This document shows, one piece after another, positions 3,055 through 47,923 of a stretch of 52,713 bases of DNA. A program made the position numbers and the translations under genes. Source of the DNA: a virus (Duplodnaviria; Caudoviricetes); the IMG/VR virus record IMGVR_UViG_3300037882_001471, positions 1 through 52,713 of that record; one strand, given 5' to 3'. How positions within the stretch are numbered: position 1 is the first letter of the stretch; each line of letters starts with the position of its first letter. Below the pieces are notes generated by a model. It was given only the letters and a program-made list of their open reading frames with translations, did no database searches and was not told the DNA's origin.

Positions 3055-3336
3055 TTATTTATACCATCTGTGATAGGTCTGCGCTACCTTTTCCAGTTCC
3101 GGGTGACGATGAATCCAGCCGCCTGTATCGGGGTGAAACTCTGTTCGGAAGAAATGATCCAGTTCTGGCCTCCCGGTATCGATCTGCGGGTTAATTTTTA
3201 AGGACTCCTGATCGAATTCAGCGTCACTTATTATCGGGCTGTCCATGAACTCATAGGCGTAGGCGGCAACCGCCATCTTAATTCGCCTGTGACGTTCAAT
3301 TTCAACCTTCGTGCGGTAGTGAAACAGGTTGCTCAT
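3055..3336 (-). CDS. stand-alone NAD+-dependent DNA ligase domain Ia-like protein
   Basis: AAYAYEFMDSPIISDAEFD resembles LigA YYxxDxPxISDAEYD; only 93 aa. Confidence 0.7.
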   Translation of the reverse strand: MSNLFHYRTKVEIERHRRIKMAVAAYAYEFMDSPIISDAEFDQESLKINPQIDTGRPELDHFFRTEFHPDTGGWIHRHPELEKVAQTYHRWYK

Positions 3337-7583: not shown

Positions 7584-7597
7584 GTTTCAGTTGCATA

Positions 7598-7644
7598 CCG
7601 CTATATTTTGTGGTTTAGTATTAAAAACTCACAACATAAGGGGT
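7598..7644. promoter_or_regulatory. tandem NrdR-like boxes upstream of fibre operon
   Basis: ccgCtAtATtTtGtgg (7598-7613) and tcaCaAcATaagGggt (7629-7644), 31 bp apart; NrdR consensus acaCwAtATaTwGtg. Confidence 0.6.
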
Positions 7645-7651
7645 ATCGCGT

Positions 7652-7924
7652 ATGTCCAAGTTTGTAGCCCTCCATACGGCTGAAGTTTCCGAAGGTGATG
7701 ATCAGAGCGAAAACGAAGCCAGCTACGGCGGCTATTCGCGCGTCGAATTGCCTGAAGATGGCGCGATCCAGTTCCCCATTCTCACCAGTGGTGAAGGTCA
7801 GTATTACACGCACGCTTCTCTCGCTGAAGAAGATGGCGTAATTACCGATGTCATCGAACTGCTGCCGCCTACCAAGGGGCAGACTGGCGCGGGGGCCAAT
7901 TTCAACGCCAGCGATTTCGCGTAA
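7652..7924 (+). CDS. short paralogue of the following virion fibre protein
   Basis: VALHTAEVSEGDDQSENEASYGGYSRV vs SLHTADPGEAGAQNTSEAAYGSYARV. Confidence 0.7.
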   Translation: MSKFVALHTAEVSEGDDQSENEASYGGYSRVELPEDGAIQFPILTSGEGQYYTHASLAEEDGVITDVIELLPPTKGQTGAGANFNASDFA

Positions 7925-7945
7925 TCTCAGGAAGGGGAGAAAACG

Positions 7946-8383
7946 ATGTCAAAAAGTAATTCACTCGAAAATAGCCTGCTACTGCTGATTTTCAATAACA
8001 CGAATATCGCAAACGTAGGTGATGCTACCGGTCTTCGCGGAAGCTCCACAGCAGGCAGTCTCTATTTCTCCCTCCATACGGCTGATCCCGGCGAAGCTGG
8101 CGCACAGAACACGAGCGAAGCGGCTTACGGTTCCTATGCCCGTGTCGCGGTGGCGCGCTCCGGCGCAGGCTTCACCGTTACCGGCAACAGCGTATCGCCT
8201 GCCGCTGACGTGACGTTCCCTGCGGCTGCATCCGGTACGGAAACGGAAACCCACTTCGGCGTAGGTACGGCATCCTCCGGTGCGGGCGTGCTGCTCTACT
8301 CCGGCACGGTGACTCCGAACATCGCCGTCGCCGCTGGTGTGACACCGATTCTGACCACTGCAACGGCGATCACCGAAGATTAA
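7946..8383 (+). CDS. small beta-rich virion fibre/structural protein
   Basis: Conserved phage pattern LYxSLHTADPGE...YARVAV...VTFP...THFGVG...LLYSG; strong RBS; followed by terminator. Confidence 0.7.
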   Translation: MSKSNSLENSLLLLIFNNTNIANVGDATGLRGSSTAGSLYFSLHTADPGEAGAQNTSEAAYGSYARVAVARSGAGFTVTGNSVSPAADVTFPAAASGTETETHFGVGTASSGAGVLLYSGTVTPNIAVAAGVTPILTTATAITED

Positions 8384-8407
8384 TCGTAGCCTGGTCATCT
8401 GTGTTGG

Positions 8408-8440
8408 AAGGGCGAGGCTTAATTGCTTCGCCTTTCTTTT
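8408..8440 (+). terminator. rho-independent terminator
   Basis: aagggcgaggc-ttaatt-gcttcgccttt followed by ctttt. Confidence 0.75.
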
Positions 8441-8455
8441 AAGTGAGGTAGAAAA

Positions 8456-9415
8456 ATGTCATTAGCGTATGTTGCAGGTGGTCAATTAGGTTCAGATGGC
8501 ACTGGTAACTTCTCGCAGTCCTTTGCTGAGGGTGTTTGCAACGGCGCGCTCGTTTTCATCGTATCGAACGCCAGCAACGCCGCGCCGGTAAGCGGCAACG
8601 TCACCTACAATGGTGTGGCGATGACTTTCGTAGGAAGCGCGATCGACGCAGCGACCGAGCTTGGCCGCGTCGATTGTTATTTCCTTGGCGGCGCGAGCTT
8701 CCCATCCGGCACGCAAACCGTTGCCTTCACGCAATCCGGCGGTGCTACCAAGCGCCTCTATGCGGTTTCGTTCTCATGCGCCGCCGGCAAGGTGATCCAG
8801 CTATATAAAAACAACCTCGTGGCCGGGGTTGATGATCTCCCCACGAATCCGCAGGCCGCTGGCACGATCAGCGCCGCAGAGTTCAATAAATTCTATGGCT
8901 ACGCCAAACTCAACGACAACGTAGCGAATCCTTCCGTTACGCTCGCTGTCCCTGCTTCGCGCACTGTCGCTGGCGCGGCGTGCTTGTTCACTGGTAACGT
9001 CGCAGCGAGCACTTCTGTTGCGAACGGAACCGAGCGTGCTGAAGCAAACTTTTCCGGTAACGCAAAAGCAGCTTCTTTGCTTACTGCCGCTCCTGTCAAT
9101 AACGGCAACCTTGTCATGGGCTGGACGGTCAGCACCGATGACATGGCGGCGATCTTTGCGTTCATTGAAGAATGCGATGTTCTCAGCGGCAATGTGACGC
9201 TCGATGGTGTTGCACAAGCTGGCGCGAAAGTGCTGGTTGTGATGGCGACAGACAATTCTCTCAGCAATGCCGCCGTGCGCGCCGTAGCCACTACCGATGG
9301 TTCAGGTGACTGGTCGGCTGATGTACCTGTCGGAATGGTCAGCTATGCTCATTGCATGTGGGATGATTCCGGCACGCTATACAGTTCTGTTGGCGCTCCA
9401 TTCCTAAGCCCGTAG
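8456..9415 (+). CDS. putative virion adhesin/beta-sandwich structural protein
   Basis: Ala/Gly/Val-rich beta character; C-terminal SGNVTLDG...TTDGSGDWS transthyretin/Cna-B-like domain. Confidence 0.55.
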   Translation: MSLAYVAGGQLGSDGTGNFSQSFAEGVCNGALVFIVSNASNAAPVSGNVTYNGVAMTFVGSAIDAATELGRVDCYFLGGASFPSGTQTVAFTQSGGATKRLYAVSFSCAAGKVIQLYKNNLVAGVDDLPTNPQAAGTISAAEFNKFYGYAKLNDNVANPSVTLAVPASRTVAGAACLFTGNVAASTSVANGTERAEANFSGNAKAASLLTAAPVNNGNLVMGWTVSTDDMAAIFAFIEECDVLSGNVTLDGVAQAGAKVLVVMATDNSLSNAAVRAVATTDGSGDWSADVPVGMVSYAHCMWDDSGTLYSSVGAPFLSP

Positions 9416-9420
9416 AGGAT

Positions 9421-9693
9421 TTGATGAAAAAAATCCTCATCAAAAAAGCGAAACAGAATTGCATCGTTGTTTTTGAGACAGCAACGGGCCGTGCTGCGAT
9501 CATTGCTTCCGATGTCGGCAATGTGCGTGATCCTGCATGGCGACCGATCGGCCATATTTGCGTTGCTGTTCCACCAGCGATTTACAATGAAAGCATTAAA
9601 GATGGTCATGATCCGCACAAGCTGGTGATCGATTATGCGCGCCTGAGATTCGAATCGCATCTCGCTAAAATGTTTGGGAGCATCGCAGCATGA
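9421..9693 (+). CDS. hypothetical protein
   Basis: RBS GAGG; ATGA-coupled to next gene. Confidence 0.55.
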   Translation: MMKKILIKKAKQNCIVVFETATGRAAIIASDVGNVRDPAWRPIGHICVAVPPAIYNESIKDGHDPHKLVIDYARLRFESHLAKMFGSIAA

Positions 9694-12380
9694 CCCAAAT
9701 TTTCATTTTAGCCGGAACGACTTCATGGACGGTTCCTGATGATTTCGACGTAGCCGCAAATACCATCGAAGGCATCGGCCCTGGCGGTCACGGCTTCCAA
9801 ACTGTCAGCACGGGTGCATCGGGCGGCTCCGGTGGTGGTGGCGCTTATGCAAAAATCACCAACTGGTCAGGATCAGGATCGGTCACAACACAGGTCGGTG
9901 CGGGAGGCAGTGAAACCGATACGATGTTCGTGGATGGCAGCACGCTCGTTGCAGATGCGGGCAAAAATGGCGCGTCCACCACCGCAGGTGCAGCAGGTTT
10001 AGCATCCGGTTCTGTCGGCAGCACAAAATATGATGGCGGCGCTGGCAAGCGTTCATCGATTGCCGGTTCCGGTGGCGGTGGCGCGGCTGGCCCGAACGGT
10101 GCAGGTAAAGATGGCGGTGTCGGCGCTGCTGGCAGCACCAGCACGTCAGGCGGTGGTGGCGGCGGCGGCTCCGATGGTGGATCATCGACAGCAGGTGCTA
10201 ACGCCTCCGGCAGCACGCGCGGCGCTGGTGGTCATGGCAATGACGGCACGGGCGGCGGCACTACAAACGGTCAAGCTGGTACGGCAAATAAAGGCGCAGG
10301 TGGCGCTGGTTCCGATACTGGCGGCTTCAGTGCATCTGCGACTGCCGGTGCAGGCTCGTCCAGTCAAGTATTCGATGCCACGCATGGCTGCGGTGGCGGT
10401 GGCGGTGGTTCTGGCGCATCGGGCGGTTCCGGTACGGGTGGCGGTGGTAACGGCGCGAATTATGGCGGCGGTGGCGGTTCTGTCGGTCAATCTGCTGGTG
10501 CATCACCTGGTACGCGCGGCACGGGCGGCGCTGGTATTCTCGTCATCACCTACACTCCGCTTGGTGATGCCACTACGTTCGCGTTCAGCGGTGATAATGC
10601 AAGCCATGTCGGTGAATGGTCTGACAATATTACACTCAGCCCCACTGCTGGCCTCTGGCCTGTAGGTGTCACCATCACACTTAGCGATGGCGGCGCGGGC
10701 GGCACATTTTATCCTGCTACACTTAATCCTACCGCTGGTGTTACTGCACCTGTAAGTTTCCGCTATCGCCCCGCAACTGCTGCGTCGATCAGCATTGATG
10801 CTGACAGCGGCGGTGAGATGACCGATCCCAGCGTTCATTCGTTCACAGCGAGTGCTGCTGAAGAATGCGCCTATTACCCACAGATTCCTGGCTATATCGA
10901 TTTCGAGTTGCAGGATTATACAGAACTCGGCGCAACTGCTGTCGATTTTGAATTTTGCCAAGATAATAATGAACTGGCGGTCGGCGCATCTTCCGGTACT
11001 TGCACGGTCACGGGTGTTAGCAGAGCGGAGAAGCGTTCAGTTGGTTCCGCTACCGGAACAACTCCTACAGCTTCAGCATTCGGCGTAACTGCAAAACGTG
11101 CAGTCGGTTCTTCCACAGGCACGAGCACGGCGGCGGCGGTCGGCGCTCCTAAATTCCGTGCTGTCGCATCATCGACCGGCACGAGCACGGTCACGGCGAC
11201 GAGCAATGCCTTAAAAGCCTCGCCTGGTTCAGCAAATGGCGCGTCCAGTGTTTCAGGTGTCGGTTCGGCAGATACGGAAGGGATCGGCTCTGCCGCAGGC
11301 ACGACTACGGCTAATGCCGTCAGCGCTGCCACCAAGACCGCAGCAGGATCATCCTCTGGTGCTGCAACCTGTTCCGGTGTTGGTACAGCGGCAATCCGTG
11401 CTGCGGGTTCTTCGACTGGCACGAGCACGGCTACTGGTGCTGGCGCAAGTGCAAGCACAGGTGCAGGTTCTTCCTCCGGCACATCTACAGTTTCAGCGAC
11501 AAGCAATGCGACCAAACGATCGGCAGGTTCCGCCGCTGGTCTAGGCACGCCTGCTGCTGTCAGCAACGCGACAAAGGCATCGGCTGGCGCATCCTCCGGT
11601 CTTGCGACCTGCACGGGTGTCAGCCGTGCTGAAAAGCGGTCTGCTGGTAGTGCAGCGGGTACAAGCACGGCTACGGCGGCTGGCGCATCGGAAGGTGATA
11701 GTGCCGGCAGCGCAGCGGGTGTTGCAACGGTCAATGGTGTTTCGGCAGCGCAGAAGCGCGCGGCGGGCGCATCCACCGGCACATCGACGTGTAATGGTAC
11801 AGGAAGATCGGAATTCCGCGCTGTCGGCTCATCAATTGGCACAAGCACGGCAGCGGCGACAGGTGAATCTGAAGCGCGCGGAGCAGGATCGTCCTCTGGC
11901 GCGGCTTCGTGCAATGCCACCAGTAATGCTCTTAAAACCGCCTCCGGCAGCGCGGCGGGTGTTGCAACTTGCTCCGGTGTCATCACTGGTCAGATTCCTG
12001 CTGTTGGCGCGGCGGCAGGCTCAAGCACTGCTACGGGTGATGGTACTGCACAAAAACGCTCGGTAGGTAATGCCGCCGGCACGAGCACGGCTGATGCGCC
12101 GTCACAATATGGCGTACCAGGCAGCGCCGCAGGTACGAGCACGGTCACGGGTGTAGGTGTTGCGGAATTCCGCGCGGCTGGCTTTGCGGCTGGCTCTAGC
12201 AGCGCCGATGGTGTTGGCAGTTTCGTTGCATCTTCACCTGAACGGCTGGTGATCACCGTCGAATTGAGCTTGCTAAGTGAGCGCACTGAAGTTACTATAA
12301 TAGAAGAATATATTGAGGCCAGCATTGTCGATAACGACATTACCGTGGAATTAACTCTGCTTGGGGATGATGAACCATGA
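9690..12380 (+). CDS. glycine-rich fibre protein with ~21 tandem 20-aa repeats
   Basis: N-terminal Gly-rich domain (SWTVP...GGGGAY...GGAGILVITY), then xGS(A/S)xGxxTxxxxG/S repeats at 10980-12236, acidic C-terminus. Confidence 0.75.
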   Translation: MTQIFILAGTTSWTVPDDFDVAANTIEGIGPGGHGFQTVSTGASGGSGGGGAYAKITNWSGSGSVTTQVGAGGSETDTMFVDGSTLVADAGKNGASTTAGAAGLASGSVGSTKYDGGAGKRSSIAGSGGGGAAGPNGAGKDGGVGAAGSTSTSGGGGGGGSDGGSSTAGANASGSTRGAGGHGNDGTGGGTTNGQAGTANKGAGGAGSDTGGFSASATAGAGSSSQVFDATHGCGGGGGGSGASGGSGTGGGGNGANYGGGGGSVGQSAGASPGTRGTGGAGILVITYTPLGDATTFAFSGDNASHVGEWSDNITLSPTAGLWPVGVTITLSDGGAGGTFYPATLNPTAGVTAPVSFRYRPATAASISIDADSGGEMTDPSVHSFTASAAEECAYYPQIPGYIDFELQDYTELGATAVDFEFCQDNNELAVGASSGTCTVTGVSRAEKRSVGSATGTTPTASAFGVTAKRAVGSSTGTSTAAAVGAPKFRAVASSTGTSTVTATSNALKASPGSANGASSVSGVGSADTEGIGSAAGTTTANAVSAATKTAAGSSSGAATCSGVGTAAIRAAGSSTGTSTATGAGASASTGAGSSSGTSTVSATSNATKRSAGSAAGLGTPAAVSNATKASAGASSGLATCTGVSRAEKRSAGSAAGTSTATAAGASEGDSAGSAAGVATVNGVSAAQKRAAGASTGTSTCNGTGRSEFRAVGSSIGTSTAAATGESEARGAGSSSGAASCNATSNALKTASGSAAGVATCSGVITGQIPAVGAAAGSSTATGDGTAQKRSVGNAAGTSTADAPSQYGVPGSAAGTSTVTGVGVAEFRAAGFAAGSSSADGVGSFVASSPERLVITVELSLLSERTEVTIIEEYIEASIVDNDITVELTLLGDDEP

Positions 12381-12715
12381 CCGTAGAAACTGAATTTTTC
12401 AAAGGTGATTCAAGCGACATCTTTTCCGTGAAAGTGTACTCCAATGGCGTACAGGTAACGGGTGATGATCTCTCTGAAAATTACGAAGGTTCATTCAGTC
12501 TCGTGAAGAAGCTCGGCCTTGAGCCAGTGCTGACGAAAGACATGGTGATCGTAGAAGACAGTTTCCGTGCATCGGTCGTGCCTGATGAGAGCGAAGACCT
12601 CGCCACCGGCAACTATATCGCTGTTACCGAGATCACTAAAGTTGACGGCACTTACCGCAAGGAAAAGCATGTCAGCGTAGCCGTGCGCAAGCAGGGCGTG
12701 GTGGTCACTCCGTAA
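12377..12715 (+). CDS. putative BppU-like/Ig-fold virion attachment protein
   Basis: FKGDS N-terminus and DLATGNYIAVTEI motif typical of small phage Ig-like adaptor proteins; ATGA overlap. Confidence 0.5.
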   Translation: MTVETEFFKGDSSDIFSVKVYSNGVQVTGDDLSENYEGSFSLVKKLGLEPVLTKDMVIVEDSFRASVVPDESEDLATGNYIAVTEITKVDGTYRKEKHVSVAVRKQGVVVTP

Positions 12716-14174: not shown

Positions 14175-14419
14175 TTGAAAACGATGACAGGATATTGCGT
14201 GTCTGACATGACGCTCTCTTGGGTTGTAGTGGTGATGACTTCCAGTTTCTTACCTTCATTGTCACATGCACGCGCTGCCGCCGTTGCGACATCACCGCCC
14301 ATAAGTTGAAAGCCTTTGATCGTGCGAATATCACTGTTCGGGCCTGGTGCTTGCGCTACGCGCTGGCCGCAGGCCGTTAGTGTGATGGTACAGCAGAGAA
14401 TTGCGAGAATGGTTTTCAT
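14159..14419 (-). CDS. putative lipoprotein
   Basis: MKTILAILCCTITLTAC: lipoprotein signal peptide with LTAC lipobox. Confidence 0.7.
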   Translation of the reverse strand: MKTILAILCCTITLTACGQRVAQAPGPNSDIRTIKGFQLMGGDVATAAARACDNEGKKLEVITTTTQESVMSDTQYPVIVFKCVKP

Positions 14420-14462
14420 GGTTTATTTTCCTTTCGTGGTTGGTGTGAGTGTGATGGTAGAG

Positions 14463-14975
14463 CTATTGTTTCTGGTATAGCCCTTTGCGCACCCTGACCA
14501 TTCTGTTCTTCACGGTCAGTTGAGCGAGGGCATTATTTACCGCTCCTTCTGATACATCATGCCCTTTTTCTTTCAGTTCTTCCCATAGCTGGAACACTGC
14601 ACGGCTTTTACCATCGCTCATGCATTCTTCCACTATGTGAGTCACCGAGGCGCGCTGTATTGTAATTTTTTTGCTGCCGCCTTCCTTGAGAATGGACAGA
14701 ATTTCGTCCAGCTTCGCCATGATTGCGCTGTTGCTGATCGATTCCGATGGTGGAGTAACGGATAGGGGGGGGGGGGTTTCTACTGCCGATGGCGCTTCAC
14801 CGTTGACTAGGCTGTATTTACCCCGGCTGATCTTCTTCACCACGTTTTTGTTGGCGAGTGCGATCAGCCCTTGCTTGACAGCGCTGTAAGTTTTTTCCGA
14901 GAGAGTTTCCAAATCAGGAATGGAATATATTTTTCCATCCTGCATGATTTCCCTGAGTTTATCTTGTGTGGACAT
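14463..14975 (-). CDS. tandem winged-HTH DNA-binding protein with poly-C linker tract
   Basis: Two similar units (AVKQGLIALANKNVVKKISRGKYSL / AVNNALAQLTVKNRMVRVRKGLYQ); G12 run at 14765-14776. Confidence 0.7.
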   Translation of the reverse strand: MSTQDKLREIMQDGKIYSIPDLETLSEKTYSAVKQGLIALANKNVVKKISRGKYSLVNGEAPSAVETPPPLSVTPPSESISNSAIMAKLDEILSILKEGGSKKITIQRASVTHIVEECMSDGKSRAVFQLWEELKEKGHDVSEGAVNNALAQLTVKNRMVRVRKGLYQKQ

Positions 14976-15017
14976 TTCGATTTGCTCCTTATTGGTGTTA
15001 GTGTGATGGTACAGCTA

Positions 15018-15389
15018 TCAGGCAATCATCTTGTCGAAAATATCGACAGACTTTTCCATGATGTCGTTCACGGCGGTCACATACTGTTTCCGCGTGATTT
15101 GTTCCCCTAGATGATGGGGATAGGTGTGATATTTTGAATTGATCTCAATCACACCGTTCTTATCGCGCTGCACACGCAGGCAAACCACCATGCCCATCGA
15201 GTCCACGCGCAGCACGCGGAAATAGATGTACCAGTAGTCTTTCGCCGTTTTCGGCAGGCTGTAGTTGTTACGATAACGGAAATACTTGCCGACGAATTTT
15301 TTAGCTTCCGCCTGCTTTTCTTTATTTCGTGCTTCATAAAGCGCGCTGTTTATCTTTCGCGCCTCTGCTTCGAGTTTCTTGAGTGACAT
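15018..15389 (-). CDS. hypothetical protein
   Basis: AAGGAGCAA RBS; flanked by 15-bp repeats. Confidence 0.7.
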   Translation of the reverse strand: MSLKKLEAEARKINSALYEARNKEKQAEAKKFVGKYFRYRNNYSLPKTAKDYWYIYFRVLRVDSMGMVVCLRVQRDKNGVIEINSKYHTYPHHLGEQITRKQYVTAVNDIMEKSVDIFDKMIA

Positions 15390-15427
15390 AGGTTGCTCCT
15401 TTTGCCGGTGTAGGTGTGATGGTACAG

Positions 15428-15766
15428 CTAGATTTCCTTCGTCCAGCCTTGGTAGCTGTGCAGGGAAACCAGTTCACCCTCCTTGCCGTTCTTCAGCAGA
15501 TTGATGCCTTTTGCATCATAGCTCTGATTGTAGGATGAATAGACTTCCACCACGCGCACGCGCCGCACCCGGCCAATGCGTCTATCTGGCGCGCTCACGA
15601 GAATGTCACCAGGTGCGAAGCCTGCATAGATAGGGCCAAGCTCACGCCGGATAGCGCGCTCATCTTCCATCAGCGGCGCTAATTCCTGCCGGTGGCGATC
15701 CTTCATTGCGCTAAGTTCCGCGCGTTTCGTCTTCAGTTTTTCTTCCAGTTCAGTTGCAGTGCTCAT
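15428..15766 (-). CDS. hypothetical protein (coiled coil + small beta domain)
   Basis: AAGGAGCAA RBS; flanked by 15-bp repeats. Confidence 0.7.
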   Translation of the reverse strand: MSTATELEEKLKTKRAELSAMKDRHRQELAPLMEDERAIRRELGPIYAGFAPGDILVSAPDRRIGRVRRVRVVEVYSSYNQSYDAKGINLLKNGKEGELVSLHSYQGWTKEI

Positions 15767-15975
15767 TTTATTTTGCTCCTTTGGTTGGTCGTGAGTGTGA
15801 TGGTACAGCAGTGCCGGCGGTGTAGGTGTAATAGTACAGCGGGTGTGAGTGTGATGGTACAGCGGGGAATCGCTTTTCAGCCCGCCCCGAAAACGCGCTT
15901 TTCGTAACCCATTGATTTATCAGGGGTAAAAACTGACCCCCTTTTAATCGCCCGGAAACGGCCTTTTTAAGCGTG

Positions 15976-21561: not shown

Positions 21562-21615
21562 ATACTACACACTACATATTACATAGTCAACAGCTATTTT
21601 TACATTCCGTAAAAA
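21562..21615 (-). promoter_or_regulatory. leftward promoter with upstream operator
   Basis: Minus strand TTGACT-17-TAGTAT; TTTTTAC-ATTCC-GTAAAAA at 21597-21615. Confidence 0.65.
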
Positions 21616-22204: not shown

Positions 22205-23014
22205 GGTAGTTCCTTTGGTTTGGGTTTTGTGTAATAGCTACACTGTAGCAGTTTACCAGATTGTAACGGTTTTACAATAGAAAAATAGAGGAAAAGCCGA
22301 TTTTCATATCCGTCCGTCAATGCAACGCTACATAAATTAAGATGTAACTATCTAAAGTGTTGCCACTTAGCAGCGCTCCAAGAGTATAAAAAACGCATAA
22401 GTGACCAAACTCAGGAAATCAAAAATTCATAAGCCGCTGTTGAAACCCCGTCCTAATCATGGCGGAATGTAGTGCGCAATAGTGTAACACCTGTATCACC
22501 TGCGCCAATCTTACCACGCTGTTACATCGTCACCTAATGCAGAATAAACTACATTCTACACACTACATCATTACACAAGCTAGATGTGGGGAAGATGCCA
22601 GGTAGGTAGCAGGCTGGCGCATCTCTACCGAGGGGGGCCGTTCCCCCGTCTTTTGCGGGGCGTGGGATCGATCCGCACATTTTGTAAATTTGGCAAAATT
22701 GAAAACCCGAACCAAGATTCATGAGTTATAAAAGTTGAAAATATAACTCACACCCCCTCCCCCCCACTTCAACAGATATAAATTCTCCATTCGGAAATTT
22801 TCTGGTATTTTGAACATCAAGCCCCTCACGTTCCTAGAGGGTTGGGGAAGGCAGCAACGCTTGAATGGATTACCTGCAACAGATGAGCCGTGAGATATTC
22901 CGGGGAGAATGGTTGTCAAACTGTCGGTGATGTGGGCTTGTCATTGGCGATGGAAGGTAGTCACTGCCAAAATTTTTTCCGATCTGGCAGCAGCCACGAG
23001 CAGTGCATTTACAG

Positions 23015-23043
23015 TTGACACCAGATTTTACAGTGTGTAAAAC
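23015..23043 (+). promoter_or_regulatory. rightward promoter with operator in spacer
   Basis: TTGACA-17-TAAAAC containing TTTTAC-AGTGT-GTAAAA (23026-23042). Confidence 0.6.
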
Positions 23044-23149
23044 TTGCTCACACCGGCAGGGTAGTTTAAGGTGGTAAAAACACCGGAGGCTTGCGCCACT
23101 GGAAATGAAGGCTCGAAATCTTCCTCTGCCGCCACAAAAGGAGCATGAA

Positions 23150-23463: not shown

Positions 23464-23635
23464 TTTGATAAAAGCATTGCAGGCGATGCCGCAGGATGCG
23501 CTCGTGGAATTTCATGACGCAACCTATAACCGCACCTGCCCGGTCAACATCGTGCATCCACAGCCTGTCAAGGTGGATCGCATTTCGGCAGAATTTGCGG
23601 TCGTTCTCACCAACAATGATGGAAGGTATCGCTGA
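23447..23635 (+). CDS. hypothetical protein
   Basis: MLVSDLIKALQAMPQDALV, common phage small-protein family. Confidence 0.6.
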   Translation: MMLVSDLIKALQAMPQDALVEFHDATYNRTCPVNIVHPQPVKVDRISAEFAVVLTNNDGRYR

Positions 23636-23862
23636 TGAGCGACATTAACGCACGATTGCAGCACATCGTTACCATGATGGGCATCACCTACAACCGCGAT
23701 CAAACATGGGAGCAGATGGGGCTGGACTCATTGGATGAAATTTCGCTGGTGATGGAGATCGAGGAAGAATTCAACATCGAAATTCCTGATGGAAAAGCTG
23801 CGGAGATAAAAAATCCTGAGCAGGCGATCGAATATTTAAAACAAAGGGGAATACTGTTGTGA
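23635..23862 (+). CDS. acpP: acyl carrier protein
   Basis: MGLDSLDEISLVMEIEEEFNIEIPD with phosphopantetheine Ser (DSL). Confidence 0.88.
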   Translation: MSDINARLQHIVTMMGITYNRDQTWEQMGLDSLDEISLVMEIEEEFNIEIPDGKAAEIKNPEQAIEYLKQRGILL

Positions 23863-24059: not shown

Positions 24060-24228
24060 TGGCCTGACTTTCGAGCAGTGGCTTGGGCTGGTTGCCAGAT
24101 CGGAAAAATGGAACGGCAAGATGAGAACTCCCCGCGCTTGGAAAGTTCTGTACGATCAAAATTTGAGTTTCGAGGAAGCTGCGGTGAGCACCGCCGTTAA
24201 ACTCTACAACGTAAAAAATCAATACTAG
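24046..24228 (+). CDS. hypothetical protein
   Basis: Overlapping ORF at end of operon. Confidence 0.45.
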   Translation: MKKTDGLTFEQWLGLVARSEKWNGKMRTPRAWKVLYDQNLSFEEAAVSTAVKLYNVKNQY

Positions 24229-24271
24229 ATGTAGCTTACACTTTGACATTATGCCCAATATGTAGCATTCT
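24222..24271 (+). promoter_or_regulatory. terS promoter overlapped by tandem NrdR-like boxes
   Basis: TTGACA(24243)-17-CATTCT; ataCtAgATgTaGctt (24222-24237) and gccCaAtATgTaGcat (24253-24268), 31 bp apart. Confidence 0.6.
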
Positions 24272-24277
24272 TGGGGC

Positions 24278-24889
24278 ATGACGGAGCAACTAACCACACC
24301 TACAAAGGCATATGATCTGCTTGAGCATTACGAACGCCAAGCGGTTGATGACTATGTAAATTATGCCATAAACCAGCAGTATCATCGCCGGCAGCGTATC
24401 GCGCTCGCGCTCTATGTTCCCATCCCGTCCGAACTGGTACGGCGCTCCAAAGGCGTGCTGGCAAAGCCGCTGGCGCGCGCTGCGGTGGCTGAAAAGCTGA
24501 CCGATGCGGCGAACGAACAAGACCTTTCCCCTGACCGAGTGATTCACGAGCACGCGGTGATCGGTTTCAGCAATATTGCCGATTATTTACAGATCGGCAC
24601 GTTTGGGGATTTCTCAATTAAAAATCTTGACAGCATCCCGCGTCATTTACTCGCGGCGGTGAAGTCGATGAAAACCATTCCGTCACCTTATGGGTTACGC
24701 ACGGAGATCACACTGCACGACAAGCATCCTTCCTTGAAGGTTCTCACCGAACTGATGGGCCTTGTCGCGCCTGACCGCCCCCCGGCGCTGGCGGATTATT
24801 CCAAGCCGCCGGAACAGGATCAAATCGGAGAAGGAGCACCCGAAACCGCATATGCCGCACTACTCGAATCTTCGCAGATGCGGCAATGA
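24278..24889 (+). CDS. terS: terminase small subunit
   Basis: RVIHEHAVIGFSNIADY...EITLHDKHPSLKVL pattern; directly upstream of TerL. Confidence 0.75.
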   Translation: MTEQLTTPTKAYDLLEHYERQAVDDYVNYAINQQYHRRQRIALALYVPIPSELVRRSKGVLAKPLARAAVAEKLTDAANEQDLSPDRVIHEHAVIGFSNIADYLQIGTFGDFSIKNLDSIPRHLLAAVKSMKTIPSPYGLRTEITLHDKHPSLKVLTELMGLVAPDRPPALADYSKPPEQDQIGEGAPETAYAALLESSQMRQ

Positions 24890-24893
24890 TTAA

Positions 24894-26633
24894 ATGGATG
24901 ATCTGTTCGGTTTATATCGTAAGCAGACCCAGCAGGTAAGCCTAGCCGTAAGGCCGCGCGCGCTCGCGCATCAGCAATGGCCTCCTGACTATGACGCGGT
25001 GTACCGGTGGCGGCATGAAACACTGCTCAAGCTGAAGAAAGATGCGAAGCTGCTGGCGAGCAGCAAAACATATTATTCCGCGCGACCCGCAGAATTCATC
25101 ATGGATTGGATGGACACTTACGATCCGCGTAATACAGAGCGCAAATGGATGCCGTTTGTTTTTTTCATGCGGCAGAGTGATCTGGTGGAGTTTTTAGAAG
25201 CGTGCGCGATCGACCAGGAATCCGGGCTGATTGAAAAAGCGCGCGACATGGGCGCAACGTGGGTATGCTGCGGCTATACGATCTGGCGCTGGCTATTTAT
25301 TAAGAGCGATGCGATCGGCTGGGGTTCGCGCAAGGAAATGCTGGTAGATACGCTTGGTGATCCCGATAGCATTTTCGAAAAGCTGCGGCTGCTGGTGCGC
25401 CGCTTGCCGACTGTGTTTCATCCGAAGGATTTTAATTGGGCGCGCCACGCAACGTTCCTCAAACTCATCAACCCGGAGAATGGCAGCATCGTTTCCGGTG
25501 AGGCGGGTGACAATATCGGTCGCGGTGGTCGTAAGTCGATCTTCTTTAAAGACGAATCGGCGCACTATGAGCGCCCGGAGAAAATCGAATCGGCGCTTGG
25601 TGACAATACCCGCGTACAGATCGACATCTCATCGGTCAACGGACTTGGCAACGTGTTTCATCGGCGCGCAGAGCACGCGGTAGAATGGACGCGCGGGCGC
25701 GAGTTGCCGAAAGGATTCGTGCGTAAATTCATCATGGACTGGCGCGACAATCCGATGAAAAGTGAGGAATGGTATCAAACGCGCCGCGCGAAATATGAAC
25801 GCGAAGGTCTGCTGCACGTTTTTGCGCAGGAAGTTGATCGCAACTATTCCGCCGCCATCAGCAACACCGTTATCGAATATCACTGGATTCGCGCTGCTAT
25901 CGATTCACATATCAAAGTACCGTACATTGCCGCTGCATATGCAGAACTGAAAAAGCATAATGAAATTTATTGGTGGGGCGGCTTGGACGTGGCCGACGAG
26001 GGTGATGACCGCAATGCTATGGCGCTCCGCGAATGGATTATCTGGCGCTCCGCTGACGAATGGGGTGAACGCGATCCTGGCATGAGCGCCCGTCGCGCCA
26101 TCGGTATGTGCCAGCCGCATTCCGGCAATATCCAATGCATGTACGATTCCATCGGTATCGGCGCGAGCGTCAAAAGCGAATATAACCGGCTCACGGAGGA
26201 TGAGAAGATCATCGATCAACGCCTGATTCCGTTCATCCCGTGGAATGCCGGTGCTGCCGTGCTTGAGCCGTTCAATCGCATCATCCCTGACGATGATAAA
26301 AGTTTACTTAATAAAGATTTCTATGAGAACCTTAAGGCGCAGGCGTGGTGGTCGCTGCGCACGCGCTTTTACAAGACGTATAAAGCGGTCACAGAAGGGA
26401 TAATGTACCCGGTGGATCAGTTGATCAGCCTCGATAGCACAATGCCCCTGCTGGACTCGATATGCAAGGAATTGGCACAGCCCACGCACGTTAAATCCCA
26501 CAGGCTTAAAACCATGATCGATAAGAAGCCAAAAGGGACGAAATCCCCCAACTTGGCCGATAGCGGCGTACTGGCATATTTCCCTGTTCCGGGTGATTCC
26601 AGCGTGGTTCAGGTGGGGGTGTATGGTCATTGA
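24894..26633 (+). CDS. terL: terminase large subunit
   Basis: EKARDMGATW Walker A variant, FKDESA Walker B, GLDVADEGDD and KSPNLADS RNase H-like nuclease motifs. Confidence 0.93.
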   Translation: MDDLFGLYRKQTQQVSLAVRPRALAHQQWPPDYDAVYRWRHETLLKLKKDAKLLASSKTYYSARPAEFIMDWMDTYDPRNTERKWMPFVFFMRQSDLVEFLEACAIDQESGLIEKARDMGATWVCCGYTIWRWLFIKSDAIGWGSRKEMLVDTLGDPDSIFEKLRLLVRRLPTVFHPKDFNWARHATFLKLINPENGSIVSGEAGDNIGRGGRKSIFFKDESAHYERPEKIESALGDNTRVQIDISSVNGLGNVFHRRAEHAVEWTRGRELPKGFVRKFIMDWRDNPMKSEEWYQTRRAKYEREGLLHVFAQEVDRNYSAAISNTVIEYHWIRAAIDSHIKVPYIAAAYAELKKHNEIYWWGGLDVADEGDDRNAMALREWIIWRSADEWGERDPGMSARRAIGMCQPHSGNIQCMYDSIGIGASVKSEYNRLTEDEKIIDQRLIPFIPWNAGAAVLEPFNRIIPDDDKSLLNKDFYENLKAQAWWSLRTRFYKTYKAVTEGIMYPVDQLISLDSTMPLLDSICKELAQPTHVKSHRLKTMIDKKPKGTKSPNLADSGVLAYFPVPGDSSVVQVGVYGH

Positions 26634-26637
26634 TGTA

Positions 26638-26653
26638 ACACAAGATATGGTGT
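26638..26653. promoter_or_regulatory. NrdR-like box upstream of portal
   Basis: acaCaAgATaTgGtgt, near-perfect match to acaCwAtATaTwGtgt. Confidence 0.6.
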
Positions 26654-26710
26654 TCTGGCCTTTACTTCCCAACAATAAGCAGTTAATATCGCACCAAAAG
26701 GGGAGCTATT

Positions 26711-29062: not shown

Positions 29063-29091
29063 TTGACGAATTGCTCTGACTATCGTATAGT
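29063..29091 (+). promoter_or_regulatory. sigma70-like promoter for major capsid gene
   Basis: TTGACG-17-TATAGT. Confidence 0.75.
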
Positions 29092-44419: not shown

Positions 44420-45714
44420 GTCAAAATCCAATGGATTTCAGTGGCGATCCGACAGGCGATGAACTGTTGGATGATTTGCTCACGCCGCAGCAGGAAAACT
44501 TTCTCACCAGTCACAGCGGTACATCACGTCCTGCATATGCGCAGGAAGGCACGGAATGGCTCGATAAAACCAGCACGCCGTGGATTCTTAAACGCTTTGA
44601 CGGCAGCGATGACATCATTGTTGGTTATATCAACGCCACTACCAACACCTACACGCCGGCAGGTCTGATTCTCGATAAAGTCAACGCAACTGCTGCGCCG
44701 ACGATCAATGATGACGATGCTGACGGGTACACAGTTGGCTCGAAATGGGTAGATGTAACGAACGATCGCGCTTATATTGCTGTTGACGTAAGCACGGGCG
44801 CTGCGGTGTGGAAGGAAATCAGTGGTAGTCTCACCGGGCCTGGTTCTTCAGTTGATGACGAAATGGCGTTGTTCTCAGGAACATCAGGCCGCGTAATTAA
44901 GCGCGCATCCGGTACAGGATATGTCAAGGTGATCAGCGGTGTGATGCAAACACCGGTCGCTACAATTCCTCTTACCGATTTCGCCAATCAAGCAGCGAAT
45001 AGCGTGCTTGCCAATGCTACCGGTTCGAGCGCGCCGCCAACGGCTGTTGCTTTGTCGGCAAGTAAACTTCTCGGTCGCGGATCGACTGGTAACGTGGCTG
45101 AAATCTCCCTTGGTGCGAATCTCAGCATGAGCGGAACGAGTTTGAGCGCTGCCTTTACTTCCAACATGGCAAGTATGCAGGTTTTCACCGGCAGCGGCAC
45201 ATGGAATAGACCGGCTGATGTGAAAGGAGTTATCGTTATCGTCACAGGCGGTGGCGGTGGCGGCGCATCGAATTCCAGTGGAGGTAATGGCGGCACTGGC
45301 GGCACATCGAGCTTTGGCGCGCATTGCTCGGCAACTGGCGGCACTGGCCCTTCGACGGGTACTCCGGGTACGGGCGGCGCTGGTTCAAGCGGCAACATCA
45401 ATATCAACGGCGGCGGCGGCTTTGCAGAGCAGGCTTCTTCGGCTATTCCGGGTTACGGTGGCGGAACATTTTGGGGGCCAGGTGCGAGCACTGAAAACGG
45501 AAACGGCTCTGCAATTGGCTCTGGTGCTGCGGGCGATCTGCTGGGCAGTTCAAGCGCAGATTCGCATCCCGGCGGTGGTGGCGGGGGTACGTCGATCAAA
45601 TTCGTTGATGTATCGGCCATATCAAGTGTTGCAGTGACAGTCGGTGCTGGCGGCACTGCGGCTGGTTCCGGCACGGGTGCGGCTGGTATCGTTTGGGTAA
45701 TCGAGTTCAAATAA
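44416..45714 (+). CDS. glycine-rich tail fibre
   Basis: APT.NDD..DGY.VGS.W module; C-terminal QVFTGSGTW.RP...GGGGGG...GIVWVIEF. Confidence 0.8.
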   Translation: MSQNPMDFSGDPTGDELLDDLLTPQQENFLTSHSGTSRPAYAQEGTEWLDKTSTPWILKRFDGSDDIIVGYINATTNTYTPAGLILDKVNATAAPTINDDDADGYTVGSKWVDVTNDRAYIAVDVSTGAAVWKEISGSLTGPGSSVDDEMALFSGTSGRVIKRASGTGYVKVISGVMQTPVATIPLTDFANQAANSVLANATGSSAPPTAVALSASKLLGRGSTGNVAEISLGANLSMSGTSLSAAFTSNMASMQVFTGSGTWNRPADVKGVIVIVTGGGGGGASNSSGGNGGTGGTSSFGAHCSATGGTGPSTGTPGTGGAGSSGNININGGGGFAEQASSAIPGYGGGTFWGPGASTENGNGSAIGSGAAGDLLGSSSADSHPGGGGGGTSIKFVDVSAISSVAVTVGAGGTAAGSGTGAAGIVWVIEFK

Positions 45715-46095: not shown

Positions 46096-46181
46096 AAGCT
46101 CTCCTTTAATTAAGAGTTTGCTAAGTATATAAATTAGCAATCATATCTTACACTCATTTTCATAAGTTTCCAGTAGATTTT

Positions 46182-46197: not shown

Positions 46198-46239
46198 TAG
46201 ATTTATAGCGTATTAACCATTGGTGGTGGTGAATCCCAT

Positions 46240-46467
46240 ATGGAAAAGATAACCGATGCTGCCACAAATGGTGTAAACTCACTATGGGACATAGCGCCTG
46301 TAGTTACCGTGCTGGTGCTTGTCATTCTCATGCTCGTATATTTTCTCAGAGCAATGCTGATCGACGCGAAGGAAGAACGCAATCTATACAGGAGCACGCT
46401 CGAAGCAAACACGAAAGCTCTGACCAGCTTACAGGAGGTGATCCGCTATGCAATCTCACTTAAATAG
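46240..46467 (+). CDS. putative holin/antiholin (1 TM + coiled coil)
   Basis: VVTVLVLVILMLVYFL TM; upstream of endolysin. Confidence 0.55.
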   Translation: MEKITDAATNGVNSLWDIAPVVTVLVLVILMLVYFLRAMLIDAKEERNLYRSTLEANTKALTSLQEVIRYAISLK

Positions 46468-46645
46468 ACGCTGGTTTCACAAGGTGGTCGATTATTTTTC
46501 ACCGAATAATTGCCGTGCGAAATTAGAGCGTGCGATATGTGAGAATAAAGAAGCGAGCGCGAGCCTTTTTTGCTTAATCAGAAATCATGAGAATGATGTA
46601 ATCGCCGCGTTGAAAAACGATCGGCGCGCAAAGGTGCATAGATGA
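46448..46645 (+). CDS. hypothetical protein in lysis cassette
   Basis: Overlaps both neighbours. Confidence 0.5.
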   Translation: MQSHLNRRWFHKVVDYFSPNNCRAKLERAICENKEASASLFCLIRNHENDVIAALKNDRRAKVHR

Positions 46646-47151
46646 GCCGTCCCTTCTGGCTGAACACTGCTATCAATTATCTCGGCACAGAAGAAATACC
46701 GGGCAGGGAAAACAACCCCATCATTCTCGACTGGTGGAAGAAGATCAAGCAGGGCGGCATCAAGGATGATGAAACTGCCTGGTGTGCTGCATTCGTCGGC
46801 GGCGTGCTCGAAGAACGCGGTATAACGTCCTCTCGCAGCGCCGGGGCGCGCTCTTACCAGAATTGGGGTGTCAAGATCGCTGGCCCCGCTGTCGGCGCTG
46901 TCGTTACGTTCTGGCGCGACGATCCGAAGGGCTGGAAGGGTCATGTTGGCTTTGTGGTCGGCAAGGATCAGTTGGGCAACCTGATGGTGCTTGGCGGGAA
47001 TCAGCAGGACGGCGTAAATATCAAACCGTTTGCCACTGCAAGGGTTTTAGCATACTGTTGGCCTAAGTCGATGGAACTACCGAAAGAATTGGGCATAAAA
47101 CTTTTGCCACTCGTGCGGTCGGACGGTCGGCTTTCAACGAACGAGGCTTAG
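46642..47151 (+). CDS. endolysin, TIGR02594 / CHAP-NlpC family
   Basis: DDETAWCAAFV, ARSY..WG, GHVGFVVG, VLGGNQ. Confidence 0.85.
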   Translation: MSRPFWLNTAINYLGTEEIPGRENNPIILDWWKKIKQGGIKDDETAWCAAFVGGVLEERGITSSRSAGARSYQNWGVKIAGPAVGAVVTFWRDDPKGWKGHVGFVVGKDQLGNLMVLGGNQQDGVNIKPFATARVLAYCWPKSMELPKELGIKLLPLVRSDGRLSTNEA

Positions 47152-47153
47152 AA

Positions 47154-47507
47154 ATGATGTGCAGGGACTTGATGAGAAATGCCGCTCCGATAATGTTCGG
47201 TATGATCGTTGTCCTCGGTTTTTTTCATGTCTTGGAAGTTTTCCTTACGCACGAAATTCCACCAGCAAATAAAGATTTCATCGTATCTTTTTGCAAGACT
47301 CTTGAAAATATACTGATCATGGTGGTCAGTTTTTGGTTCGGCACGAATGCCGGCAGCAAAGCGAAAGATGAAACAATTAGTGATATTGCCAAAGCAGCGC
47401 CAACCGGCACGGGCAGCGGCACTACTACAATTCAGAACGCCGAAAGCGTGACGAATGCCACCAAGGAAGGTGATATTAACGTAACCCAAAAGGAGCCTAA
47501 CCCATGA
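47154..47507 (+). CDS. two-TM membrane protein, putative holin
   Basis: Two TM segments, VVSFWFGTNAGSK.KD motif. Confidence 0.6.
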   Translation: MMCRDLMRNAAPIMFGMIVVLGFFHVLEVFLTHEIPPANKDFIVSFCKTLENILIMVVSFWFGTNAGSKAKDETISDIAKAAPTGTGSGTTTIQNAESVTNATKEGDINVTQKEPNP

Positions 47508-47923
47508 AGAATATTTTCTTAGTTGCCTGCGCCGCTACTGCCCTGATGCTTTCCGCCTGCGGCACGGCTGAAAACAAAGCAACCATCGTTACCGCCGATG
47601 GTAAGGTGGTCGAAAGCATCAACACCAAAGCGCAGCAGACCATCTTTCAAGCGCAGGGCTATTACAATGCTGCCGTGGTAGCAGAAACCGCCTACGGCAA
47701 GCTGCCGCGTTGCCCGCAGGCTAAACCTATCTGCTCTGATGTTGCTGTAATGAAGAAGGTTCGCCTGATCGATGAGGCGGCATGGATTGCCATCAAAGAA
47801 GCGCAGAAAGCCGCCCGCACGCCTGGATTCGGTGATGAAAAACTGACAACCTACCTCACCAGCGCGCAGTCTTTGGTGAAAGCCTTCAGGGACATCACCG
47901 CCACGCTGCCGGCAAAGAAGTAA
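47504..47923 (+). CDS. lipoprotein, putative spanin component
   Basis: LSAC lipobox; in lysis cassette. Confidence 0.65.
   Translation: MKNIFLVACAATALMLSACGTAENKATIVTADGKVVESINTKAQQTIFQAQGYYNAAVVAETAYGKLPRCPQAKPICSDVAVMKKVRLIDEAAWIAIKEAQKAARTPGFGDEKLTTYLTSAQSLVKAFRDITATLPAKK

Follow-up and report, generated by a model that had tools for sequence, protein, structure and literature searches.

Why would a phage that encodes no ribonucleotide reductase carry sequences resembling the operators of the bacterial repressor NrdR at the promoters that drive packaging, portal, fibre, and lysis genes? The question arises from the IMG/VR virus record IMGVR_UViG_3300037882_001471, a siphophage record estimated to be 98% complete, whose whole stretch of 52,713 bases (G+C about 51-52%) was analyzed here and is called the window. 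The original prediction located 16-bp palindromic boxes in it and proposed that the phage borrows the NrdR of its host as a timer, with late transcription released when replication lowers dATP. Our results suggest that the boxes are probably genuine NrdR-type operators. Gating of the late genes by dATP is plausible, with the chances for and against it about equal.

The boxes were read again in the sequence, and each stood at the position where it had been placed. The sites and the associated promoter elements are given below; bits and ranks refer to the NrdR matrix described further on.

24222-24237: terS box 1, ATACTAGATGTAGCTT, overlapping the stop codon of the upstream open reading frame (ORF); 12.6 bits, rank 5
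24243-24248, plus strand: terS -35 element TTGACA, within the 15-bp spacer between the two boxes
24253-24268: terS box 2, GCCCAATATGTAGCAT, which spans the promoter spacer plus the first bases of the -10 element; 13.9 bits, rank 3
24266-24271, plus strand: terS -10-like element CATTCT, 17 bp past TTGACA and 6 nucleotides (nt) ahead of the ATG
7598-7613: fibre box 1, CCGCTATATTTTGTGG, directly 3' of a -35-like TTGCAT (7591-7596); 13.6 bits, rank 4
7629-7644: fibre box 2, TCACAACATAAGGGGT, overlapping a Shine-Dalgarno-like AAGGGG; 12.0 bits, rank 7
26638-26653: portal box, ACACAAGATATGGTGT, 5 nt past the terL stop codon; 17.7 bits, rank 1
26661-26689, plus strand: probable portal promoter, TTTACT (26661-26666), 17 bp, TAATAT (26684-26689)
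26670-26685: weak partner of the portal box, in the portal promoter spacer; 2.0 bits
46182-46197: lysis box, CTACCATATCTTGTGC, upstream of the lysis cassette; 14.9 bits, rank 2
46214-46229: weak partner of the lysis box; 0.0 bits
22577-22592: marginal candidate box, AAGCTAGATGTGGGGA; 9.0 bits, rank 13

The geometry agreed with the original prediction. The terS pair and the fibre pair (7598 and 7629) are each spaced exactly 31 bp, the terS -35 and -10-like elements lie between or under the boxes, and the positions 32 bp downstream of 26638 and 46182 hold only the weak partners, at 2.0 and 0.0 bits, so that the portal and lysis sites are effectively single boxes in the window. When the 70 bp on either side of each strong box were scored, a single further position reached at least 2 bits, and it stood at exactly 31 or 32 bp; around the lysis box there was none. 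All six core bases (C4, A6, A8, T9, T11, and G13) are present in five of the six main boxes, and the remaining one, at 7629, has five of these bases.

The strong boxes lie within 54-74 bp of the start codons, both in the window and in its closest relative, G001. Fibre box 2 ends 8 nt ahead of the ATG at 7652, and the portal box, the strongest NrdR-type box in the genome, abuts the portal promoter on its upstream side. At terS and portal, conserved -35/-10-like hexamers sit in the box region, either between the boxes or beneath them; the promoters of the fibre operon and the lysis cassette are harder to discern. As far as the promoters can be predicted, at least one box lies on the inferred core promoter at every operon, with a register that differs among operons, and such a variable register would fit the operator of a repressor better than the fixed-position site of an activator. 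No Shine-Dalgarno sequence precedes terS in the window or in the loci L001, L011, and L218, and the geometry of the -35 and -10-like elements is the same in four related phages (the window, G001, L011, and L218). The -10-like element also ends 6 nt from the start codon, and terS is thus probably transcribed into a leaderless mRNA.

For the scoring, NrdR box pairs were defined by the published regular expression, which has a 20-23-base core gap (PMC12051234, section 4.6; here and below, papers are cited for the portions of their text that were available). The reductase catalytic domain PF02867 was searched against 151 Pseudomonadota genomes, 148 of which had a match. From the matches listed, 80 stretches upstream of PF02867 genes were picked, and cores were collected with the published expression. 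The core-to-core distances had a sharp peak, with 17 cases at 31 bp and 13 at 32 bp, and therefore real operators dominate this set. A pair at 30-33 bp was present in 28 of the 80 regions, and 30 pairs at 31 or 32 bp came from 27 regions; after three refinement rounds, 25 box pairs were retained. The resulting matrix has the consensus ACACAATATATTGTGT and an information content of 12.6 bits.

Scored with this matrix, built from Pseudomonadota nrd promoters, the six main boxes ranked 1, 2, 3, 4, 5, and 7 among the 52,698 positions of the window. Their scores (12.0-17.7 bits) are inside the range of the genuine boxes, mostly 10-18 bits in leave-one-out scoring. The terS pair (26.5 bits) and the fibre pair (25.6 bits) were the sole pairs in the window above 16 bits, compared with a median of 28.3 bits and a range of 15.2-37.1 for genuine pairs, and both satisfy the published expression and its "short" 15-bp spacer class (PMC12051234). 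Several genuine boxes upstream of nrd genes have the same cores as phage boxes (CAATATGTAG in L154, CCATATCTTG in L185).

Enterobacterial nrdA loci were rejected as a source for the matrix: 71 of 80 had no pair by the published expression because box 1 is degenerate there. As a control, these 80 loci gave a median of 8.8 bits for the partner box, with five below 6 bits. At nrdA of Escherichia coli K-12 (L022, 441-519), box 2 (473-488) scored 18.2 bits, compared with the 12.0-17.7 bits of the phage boxes, and 7.5-bit boxes lie 32 bp upstream and 31 bp downstream of it. Of these two, the downstream box may correspond to the "new box" that PMC12176259 mentions in its abstract.

The original prediction was also examined against chance. 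The main boxes differ from the bare consensus ACACWATATATWGTGT at 2 to 5 positions. Sites with up to five mismatches numbered 34 in the window versus 24.5 +/- 5.2 in shuffled sequences, and 13 of 300 shuffles reached 34; the mismatch count alone is therefore weak evidence. The pattern CWANATNTWG was not enriched genome-wide either (4 matches versus 2.5 expected; 25 of 100 shuffles reached 4). Spacing and location were more informative. Consensus pairs at 31-32 bp numbered two versus 0.04 expected, a count that none of the 300 shuffles reached. The strict core C.A.AT.T.G has 13 sites in the window, and seven of them fall within the intergenic 9.7% of the genome (binomial P 8e-5). Among eight palindromic patterns of the same composition, this core had the most intergenic matches in the window and G001 (7 versus 0-3). 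Finally, pairs of at least 20 bits numbered two in the window versus a shuffle mean of 0.005, with any such pair in only one of 200 dinucleotide shuffles; G001 had four, and none of its 200 shuffles had any. The observation is thus confirmed as real and far beyond chance.

The search with terL found 18 viral loci. The closest relative, G001 (57.5 kb, 46% G+C), has a terL 88% identical to that of the window and is syntenic with it at about 72-80% nucleotide identity. Its four best pairs, all intergenic, lie before terS (24.5 bits), the fibre operon (22.6 bits), the lysis cassette (22.1 bits), and portal (20.8 bits), and the spacing is 31 or 32 bp at all four sites. The portal box of G001 scored 15.3 bits with a 5.5-bit partner and a promoter TTTACA-17-TAGTAT, and its lysis box, CTACCAGATATTGTGT, scored 15.5 bits and has, at a distance of 32 bp, a partner of 6.6 bits. 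Upstream of the fibre operon, the DNA of the two phages does not allow an alignment, yet a pair is present in both, spaced 32 bp in G001 and with a comparable arrangement of boxes; for this reason, the G001 fibre pair counts as independent evidence.

A third close relative, represented by the metagenome contigs L218 and L211, has a terS pair at 31 bp that scored 20.9 bits and encloses TTGACA and, in L211, a portal box of 17.0 bits at the same place. The boxes are thus kept in relatives, at all four operons in G001 and at terS and portal in L218/L211. In the more distant L011/G002 (terL 68% identical), only box 2 and the promoter are kept at terS. Box 1 of terS is conserved in G001 and L218 with changes only at positions 2, 5, 7, and 10, box 2 is conserved in four phages, and the -35 element TTGACA is identical in G001 and L218 and reads TTGACT in L011. 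Across the orthologous boxes of up to four phages, variation was seen in 18 of the 64 columns and in none of the 24 that form the core (box positions 4, 6, 8, 9, 11, and 13; P 3e-5). Therefore, selection keeps exactly the positions that carry NrdR specificity.

Outside this group, the signal was rare. Ten more related records (443 kb, some overlapping) had no pair of at least 20 bits and no intergenic enrichment, and 80 other viral loci with the same Gp80-like fibre module (243 kb) had no pair of at least 18 bits; altogether, the matrix-pair scan found no such pair in about 690 kb of other phage DNA. Rhizobium phage P106B (NC_023566.1) had no pair at its late promoters. Its sole pair (44928-44975; 32 bp, 19.3 bits), just under the 20-bit threshold, lies inside P106B_70, annotated as an excisionase/transcriptional regulator, before the primase gene, and may be due to chance. 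A search with the lysis gene turned up no further carriers. The likeness of the sequences to NrdR operators, their geometry, their conservation, and their rarity were all observed directly.

The genes downstream of the boxes are not those of a usual NrdR operator, which lies upstream of a reductase operon or of nrdR. In the window, no match was found to PF03477 (ATP-cone), PF02867, or TIGR00244, in agreement with the absence of nrd genes noted earlier, and no ATP-cone or nrdR gene is therefore recognized. G001, searched with PF02867 and TIGR00244, had no match to either. The phage encodes replication functions and a dCTP deaminase yet lacks a reductase, and so depends on the host for the synthesis of deoxynucleoside triphosphates (dNTPs). 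We also sought a phage-encoded binder similar to NrdR in the form of a small zinc-ribbon ORF common to the window and G001, and none was found. The Pfam scan of the 55 unassigned ORFs of the window gave no clear regulator; the ORF at 2028-2306 had a weak helix-turn-helix match under the Pfam cut-off.

The phage sites share with bacterial NrdR operators the 16-bp palindromic boxes with conserved C4/G13 and central AT, and, at the paired sites, the two boxes whose centres are 31-32 bp apart, with a spacer of 15-16 bp; they may also share the overlap with the RNA polymerase site (PMC9110341, PMC12051234, PMC2892513). The bacterial operators compared were those of E. coli nrdAB, nrdHIEF, and nrdDG, Streptomyces coelicolor nrdRJ and nrdAB, and Listeria monocytogenes nrdAB and nrdDG. 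Unlike these, the phage sites are on packaging, portal, fibre, and lysis promoters, in a genome encoding neither a reductase nor NrdR. NrdR proteins of three phyla accept consensus boxes with 15-17 bp spacers (PMC12051234), and inversion of the C4 and G13 base pairs, which are contacts shown to matter for NrdR, cut binding about 50-fold (PMC9110341). According to published work, the DNA-binding form of NrdR is a tetramer that must carry dATP together with ATP or ADP, whereas NrdR with ATP alone assembles into oligomers unable to bind (PMC9110341, PMC12051234, PMC12176259). The direction of the proposed switch, in which a drop in dATP relieves repression, agrees with this biochemistry. In lytic infection by the pneumophage SpSL1, strong induction has been described for host transcripts that have NrdR sites upstream (PMC6755750).

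On this basis, we infer that the host has an NrdR, that it binds the sites, that binding represses, and that the whole works as a timer. The host NrdR tetramer, loaded with ATP and dATP, would bind the paired boxes over the terS-terL and fibre core promoters and probably, more weakly, the portal and lysis boxes. Bound NrdR would bend the DNA and block RNA polymerase. The phage, with its own polymerase, primase, and helicase but no reductase, would then draw down dATP by replication, and falling dATP would shift NrdR into its ATP-only form, unable to bind DNA. The packaging, portal, fibre, and lysis genes would fire simultaneously with the host nrd operons.

Parts of this scheme have counterparts elsewhere. 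Phage T4 uses its own clamp, sigma factor, and co-activator, all acting on DNA. Through the sliding clamp gp45, its late genes are likewise tied to ongoing phage replication (PMC2988020). In the window phage, unlike T4, the link would be metabolic and would run through nucleotide pools and a host repressor. LexA reportedly senses DNA damage, and GIL01 is said to be a temperate phage. As in the scheme above, a host sensor-repressor, in this case LexA, gates lytic or late genes in GIL01 (PMC6182141). The signal here would instead be the dATP/ATP ratio, and the PHROG scan recognized no integrase or repressor in the window. At Pseudomonas aeruginosa topA, an NrdR box acts on a promoter outside the nrd genes, although this is a single box that activates rather than represses and belongs to a host gene (PMC4409342). 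A full-text literature search, which did not cover Rodionov and Gelfand (2005), found no description of NrdR boxes on phage structural or lysis promoters.

Several points weigh against the borrowed timer. Tight NrdR binding is reported to require two boxes (PMC12051234), which counts against the single portal and lysis boxes, whose partners score 2.0 and 0.0 bits against the 8.8-bit median at the enterobacterial nrdA loci. The placement of the boxes relative to the promoters varies by operon, and those promoters are themselves predictions. A sigma-70-like promoter before the major head gene (29063-29091, TTGACG-17-TATAGT) carries no box, and therefore only part of the late programme would be gated. 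The six core columns of the matrix were partly fixed by construction, because cores were chosen with the published expression; the other columns were free. The pairs are confined to a small clade comprising the window, G001, and the L218/L211 phage. Finally, an NrdR in the host has to be presumed.

Of the rival explanations, coincidental matches in AT-rich promoter DNA, with no dedicated factor, are extremely improbable. The 2-5 mismatches to the bare consensus and the lack of genome-wide enrichment of CWANATNTWG would fit such an origin; it is opposed by the rarity of pairs of at least 20 bits in shuffles of both genomes and in other phage DNA, by an intergenic enrichment specific to this pattern relative to its controls, by the recurrence in unalignable G001 DNA, and by substitutions that spare the core. 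A protein other than NrdR, either a phage regulator or a different host factor with similar specificity, could also read the boxes as the clade's own late-gene motif, and we consider this quite unlikely. It would account for a motif limited to a small clade and lacking in more distant relatives, and the phage has many small ORFs without known family, among them the one with the weak helix-turn-helix match. The right half ATGTAG does recur, and a phage-specific ATGTAG promoter motif (7 of 17 copies intergenic) was suspected; because genuine nrd-upstream boxes carry the same cores, ATGTAG is not a distinguishing feature. With such a protein, the six core positions, the flanks, and the 31-32 bp phasing would all have to resemble NrdR operators by coincidence. 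The CAATATGTAG and CCATATCTTG cores are also those of nrd boxes, and no NrdR-like, ATP-cone, or shared zinc-ribbon protein is encoded.

The boxes might instead serve as an NrdR decoy, in which multiplying phage genomes, each with up to four operators, pull NrdR off the host nrd promoters and raise reductase, the effect on late promoters being secondary. The operator evidence is the same as for the timer, and the phage, whatever replication functions it encodes, relies on host dNTP synthesis. As the principal function, this is unlikely, though it merits consideration. All strong boxes in the window and G001 are on inferred late core promoters and not in a gene-free array; a decoy would not need such placement, which argues that it explains the boxes only in part. 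With two to four operators, each genome would also be a modest sink. Decoy and gating may coexist. The timing of late genes by dATP through phage-borrowed NrdR operators is the best explanation as a whole, and our confidence in it is evenly divided. Its operator part, as originally predicted, is well supported by sequence evidence, namely the matrix fit, the published expression, the recurrence in a diverged relative, and the substitution pattern, whereas its gating part keeps the standing of a proposal.

The setting of the boxes is a siphovirus layout, recognized by PHROG and Pfam scans, with the following main features:

Both flanks: replication genes (helicase, dCTP deaminase, exonuclease, methyltransferase, primase, and DNA polymerase)
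7652-12715, plus strand: separate fibre/tail-appendage operon (PHROG 553) downstream of the primase gene, with a 90-aa ORF, a Gp80-like fibre protein, a minor tail protein, and 896-aa and 112-aa proteins
7946-8383: Gp80-like fibre protein (Pfam PF23140 Gp80, E 1.5e-14)
12.7-22.2 kb, minus strand: block of about 10 kb of small unknown genes
22205-23104: non-coding region of 900 bp
23.1-45.7 kb, plus strand: long block running from small ORFs to terS, terL, portal, head, and tail genes
24278-24889, plus strand: terS (Pfam Terminase_2, E 7.6e-8)
24894-26633, plus strand: terL (PHROG terminase large subunit)
46240-47923, plus strand: lysis cassette, with two small ORFs, a CHAP/lysozyme-like protein, and two more ORFs
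46642-47151: CHAP/lysozyme-like protein (PHROG 1259, E 4.9e-38; Pfam CHAP, E 6e-6)

The nearest cultured phages are the Rhizobium phages P106B and RHph_X2_24, at about 60-67% protein identity, and the closest cultured relatives infect Rhizobium and Sinorhizobium. The tail-fibre relatives all come from phages of Alphaproteobacteria, which is a loose pointer to the host only. The NrdR family TIGR00244 matched 9 of 14 control genomes, Caulobacter among them. When 7 kb of the window was compared with the phage collection by megablast, no match was obtained; Rfam and tRNA scans of the window were likewise negative. Relatives of the Gp80-like fibre protein, at 52-82% identity, were found in at least 80 viral contigs (L222-L301) of 4-144 kb, and the protein thus behaves as a widely exchanged module. 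The phage also encodes a small acyl-carrier-protein-like protein (23635-23862; Pfam PP-binding, E 3.5e-8) and a free-standing DNA-ligase-like N-terminal domain (3055-3336; Nlig-Ia, E 5.3e-9).

Other sequence elements were observed in the control regions. The site at 22577, named in the original prediction as a further candidate box, was rejected as part of the system: it scored 9.0 bits, had no partner within 70 bp, and was not conserved in G001. Two copies of CTACACACTACAT followed by a TTACA-like word were seen at 21563-21585 and 22553-22577, the first of which overlaps a minus-strand promoter-like TTGACT-17-TAGTAT (21590-21562). ATGTAG/CTACAT words cluster in this control region, and the NrdR matrix gave only 9.4 and 9.0 bits there. 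Nearby, at 22600-22700 within the non-coding region, a G+C-rich hairpin, GGGGGGCCGTTCCCCC, had no Rfam match; the hairpin and its flanks are nearly identical in G001 while the surrounding DNA has diverged, and its role could be that of a terminator, of a site for packaging or replication, or of a small RNA.

Among the minus-strand genes at 14382-15870, an element of about 19 bases occurs in six copies with small variations (minus-strand reading GCTGTACCATCACACTCAC); its plus-strand word GTGATGGTA is found at 14382, 14451, 15003, 15416, 15797, and 15851. Most copies lie 20-30 nt upstream of the ribosome-binding sites of small early genes, and the element may act as a promoter for early or middle genes or as a signal for processing. 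The lysis cassette and a small minus-strand ORF diverge from a region that also holds the inverted repeat TTGCTAA-N9-TTAGCAA (46118-46140), about 45 bp ahead of the lysis box. G001 retains part of this repeat, which may be a second operator at the lysis cassette.

For this virulent-looking, reductase-less siphophage clade, the wider picture, in which we place slightly less than even confidence, is that the fall in dATP caused by replication opens the late programme through a host sensor, while the operators also titrate NrdR and thereby aid host dNTP synthesis. Temporal control in phages is usually ascribed to activators, sigma factors, antiterminators, or RNA polymerases made by the phage. 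If the picture is true, a late switch that needs no such phage-encoded factor would be a new principle, and virion assembly and lysis would be tied to the very nucleotide pool that replication consumes. Mutation of nrdR or dNTP-depleting drugs would then advance late transcription and lysis, and box mutants would lose the delay. The matrix-pair scoring is very specific, which makes a survey across phage collections feasible. The NrdR regulon, treated in the literature as almost wholly reductase-specific, would in that case extend to mobile elements.

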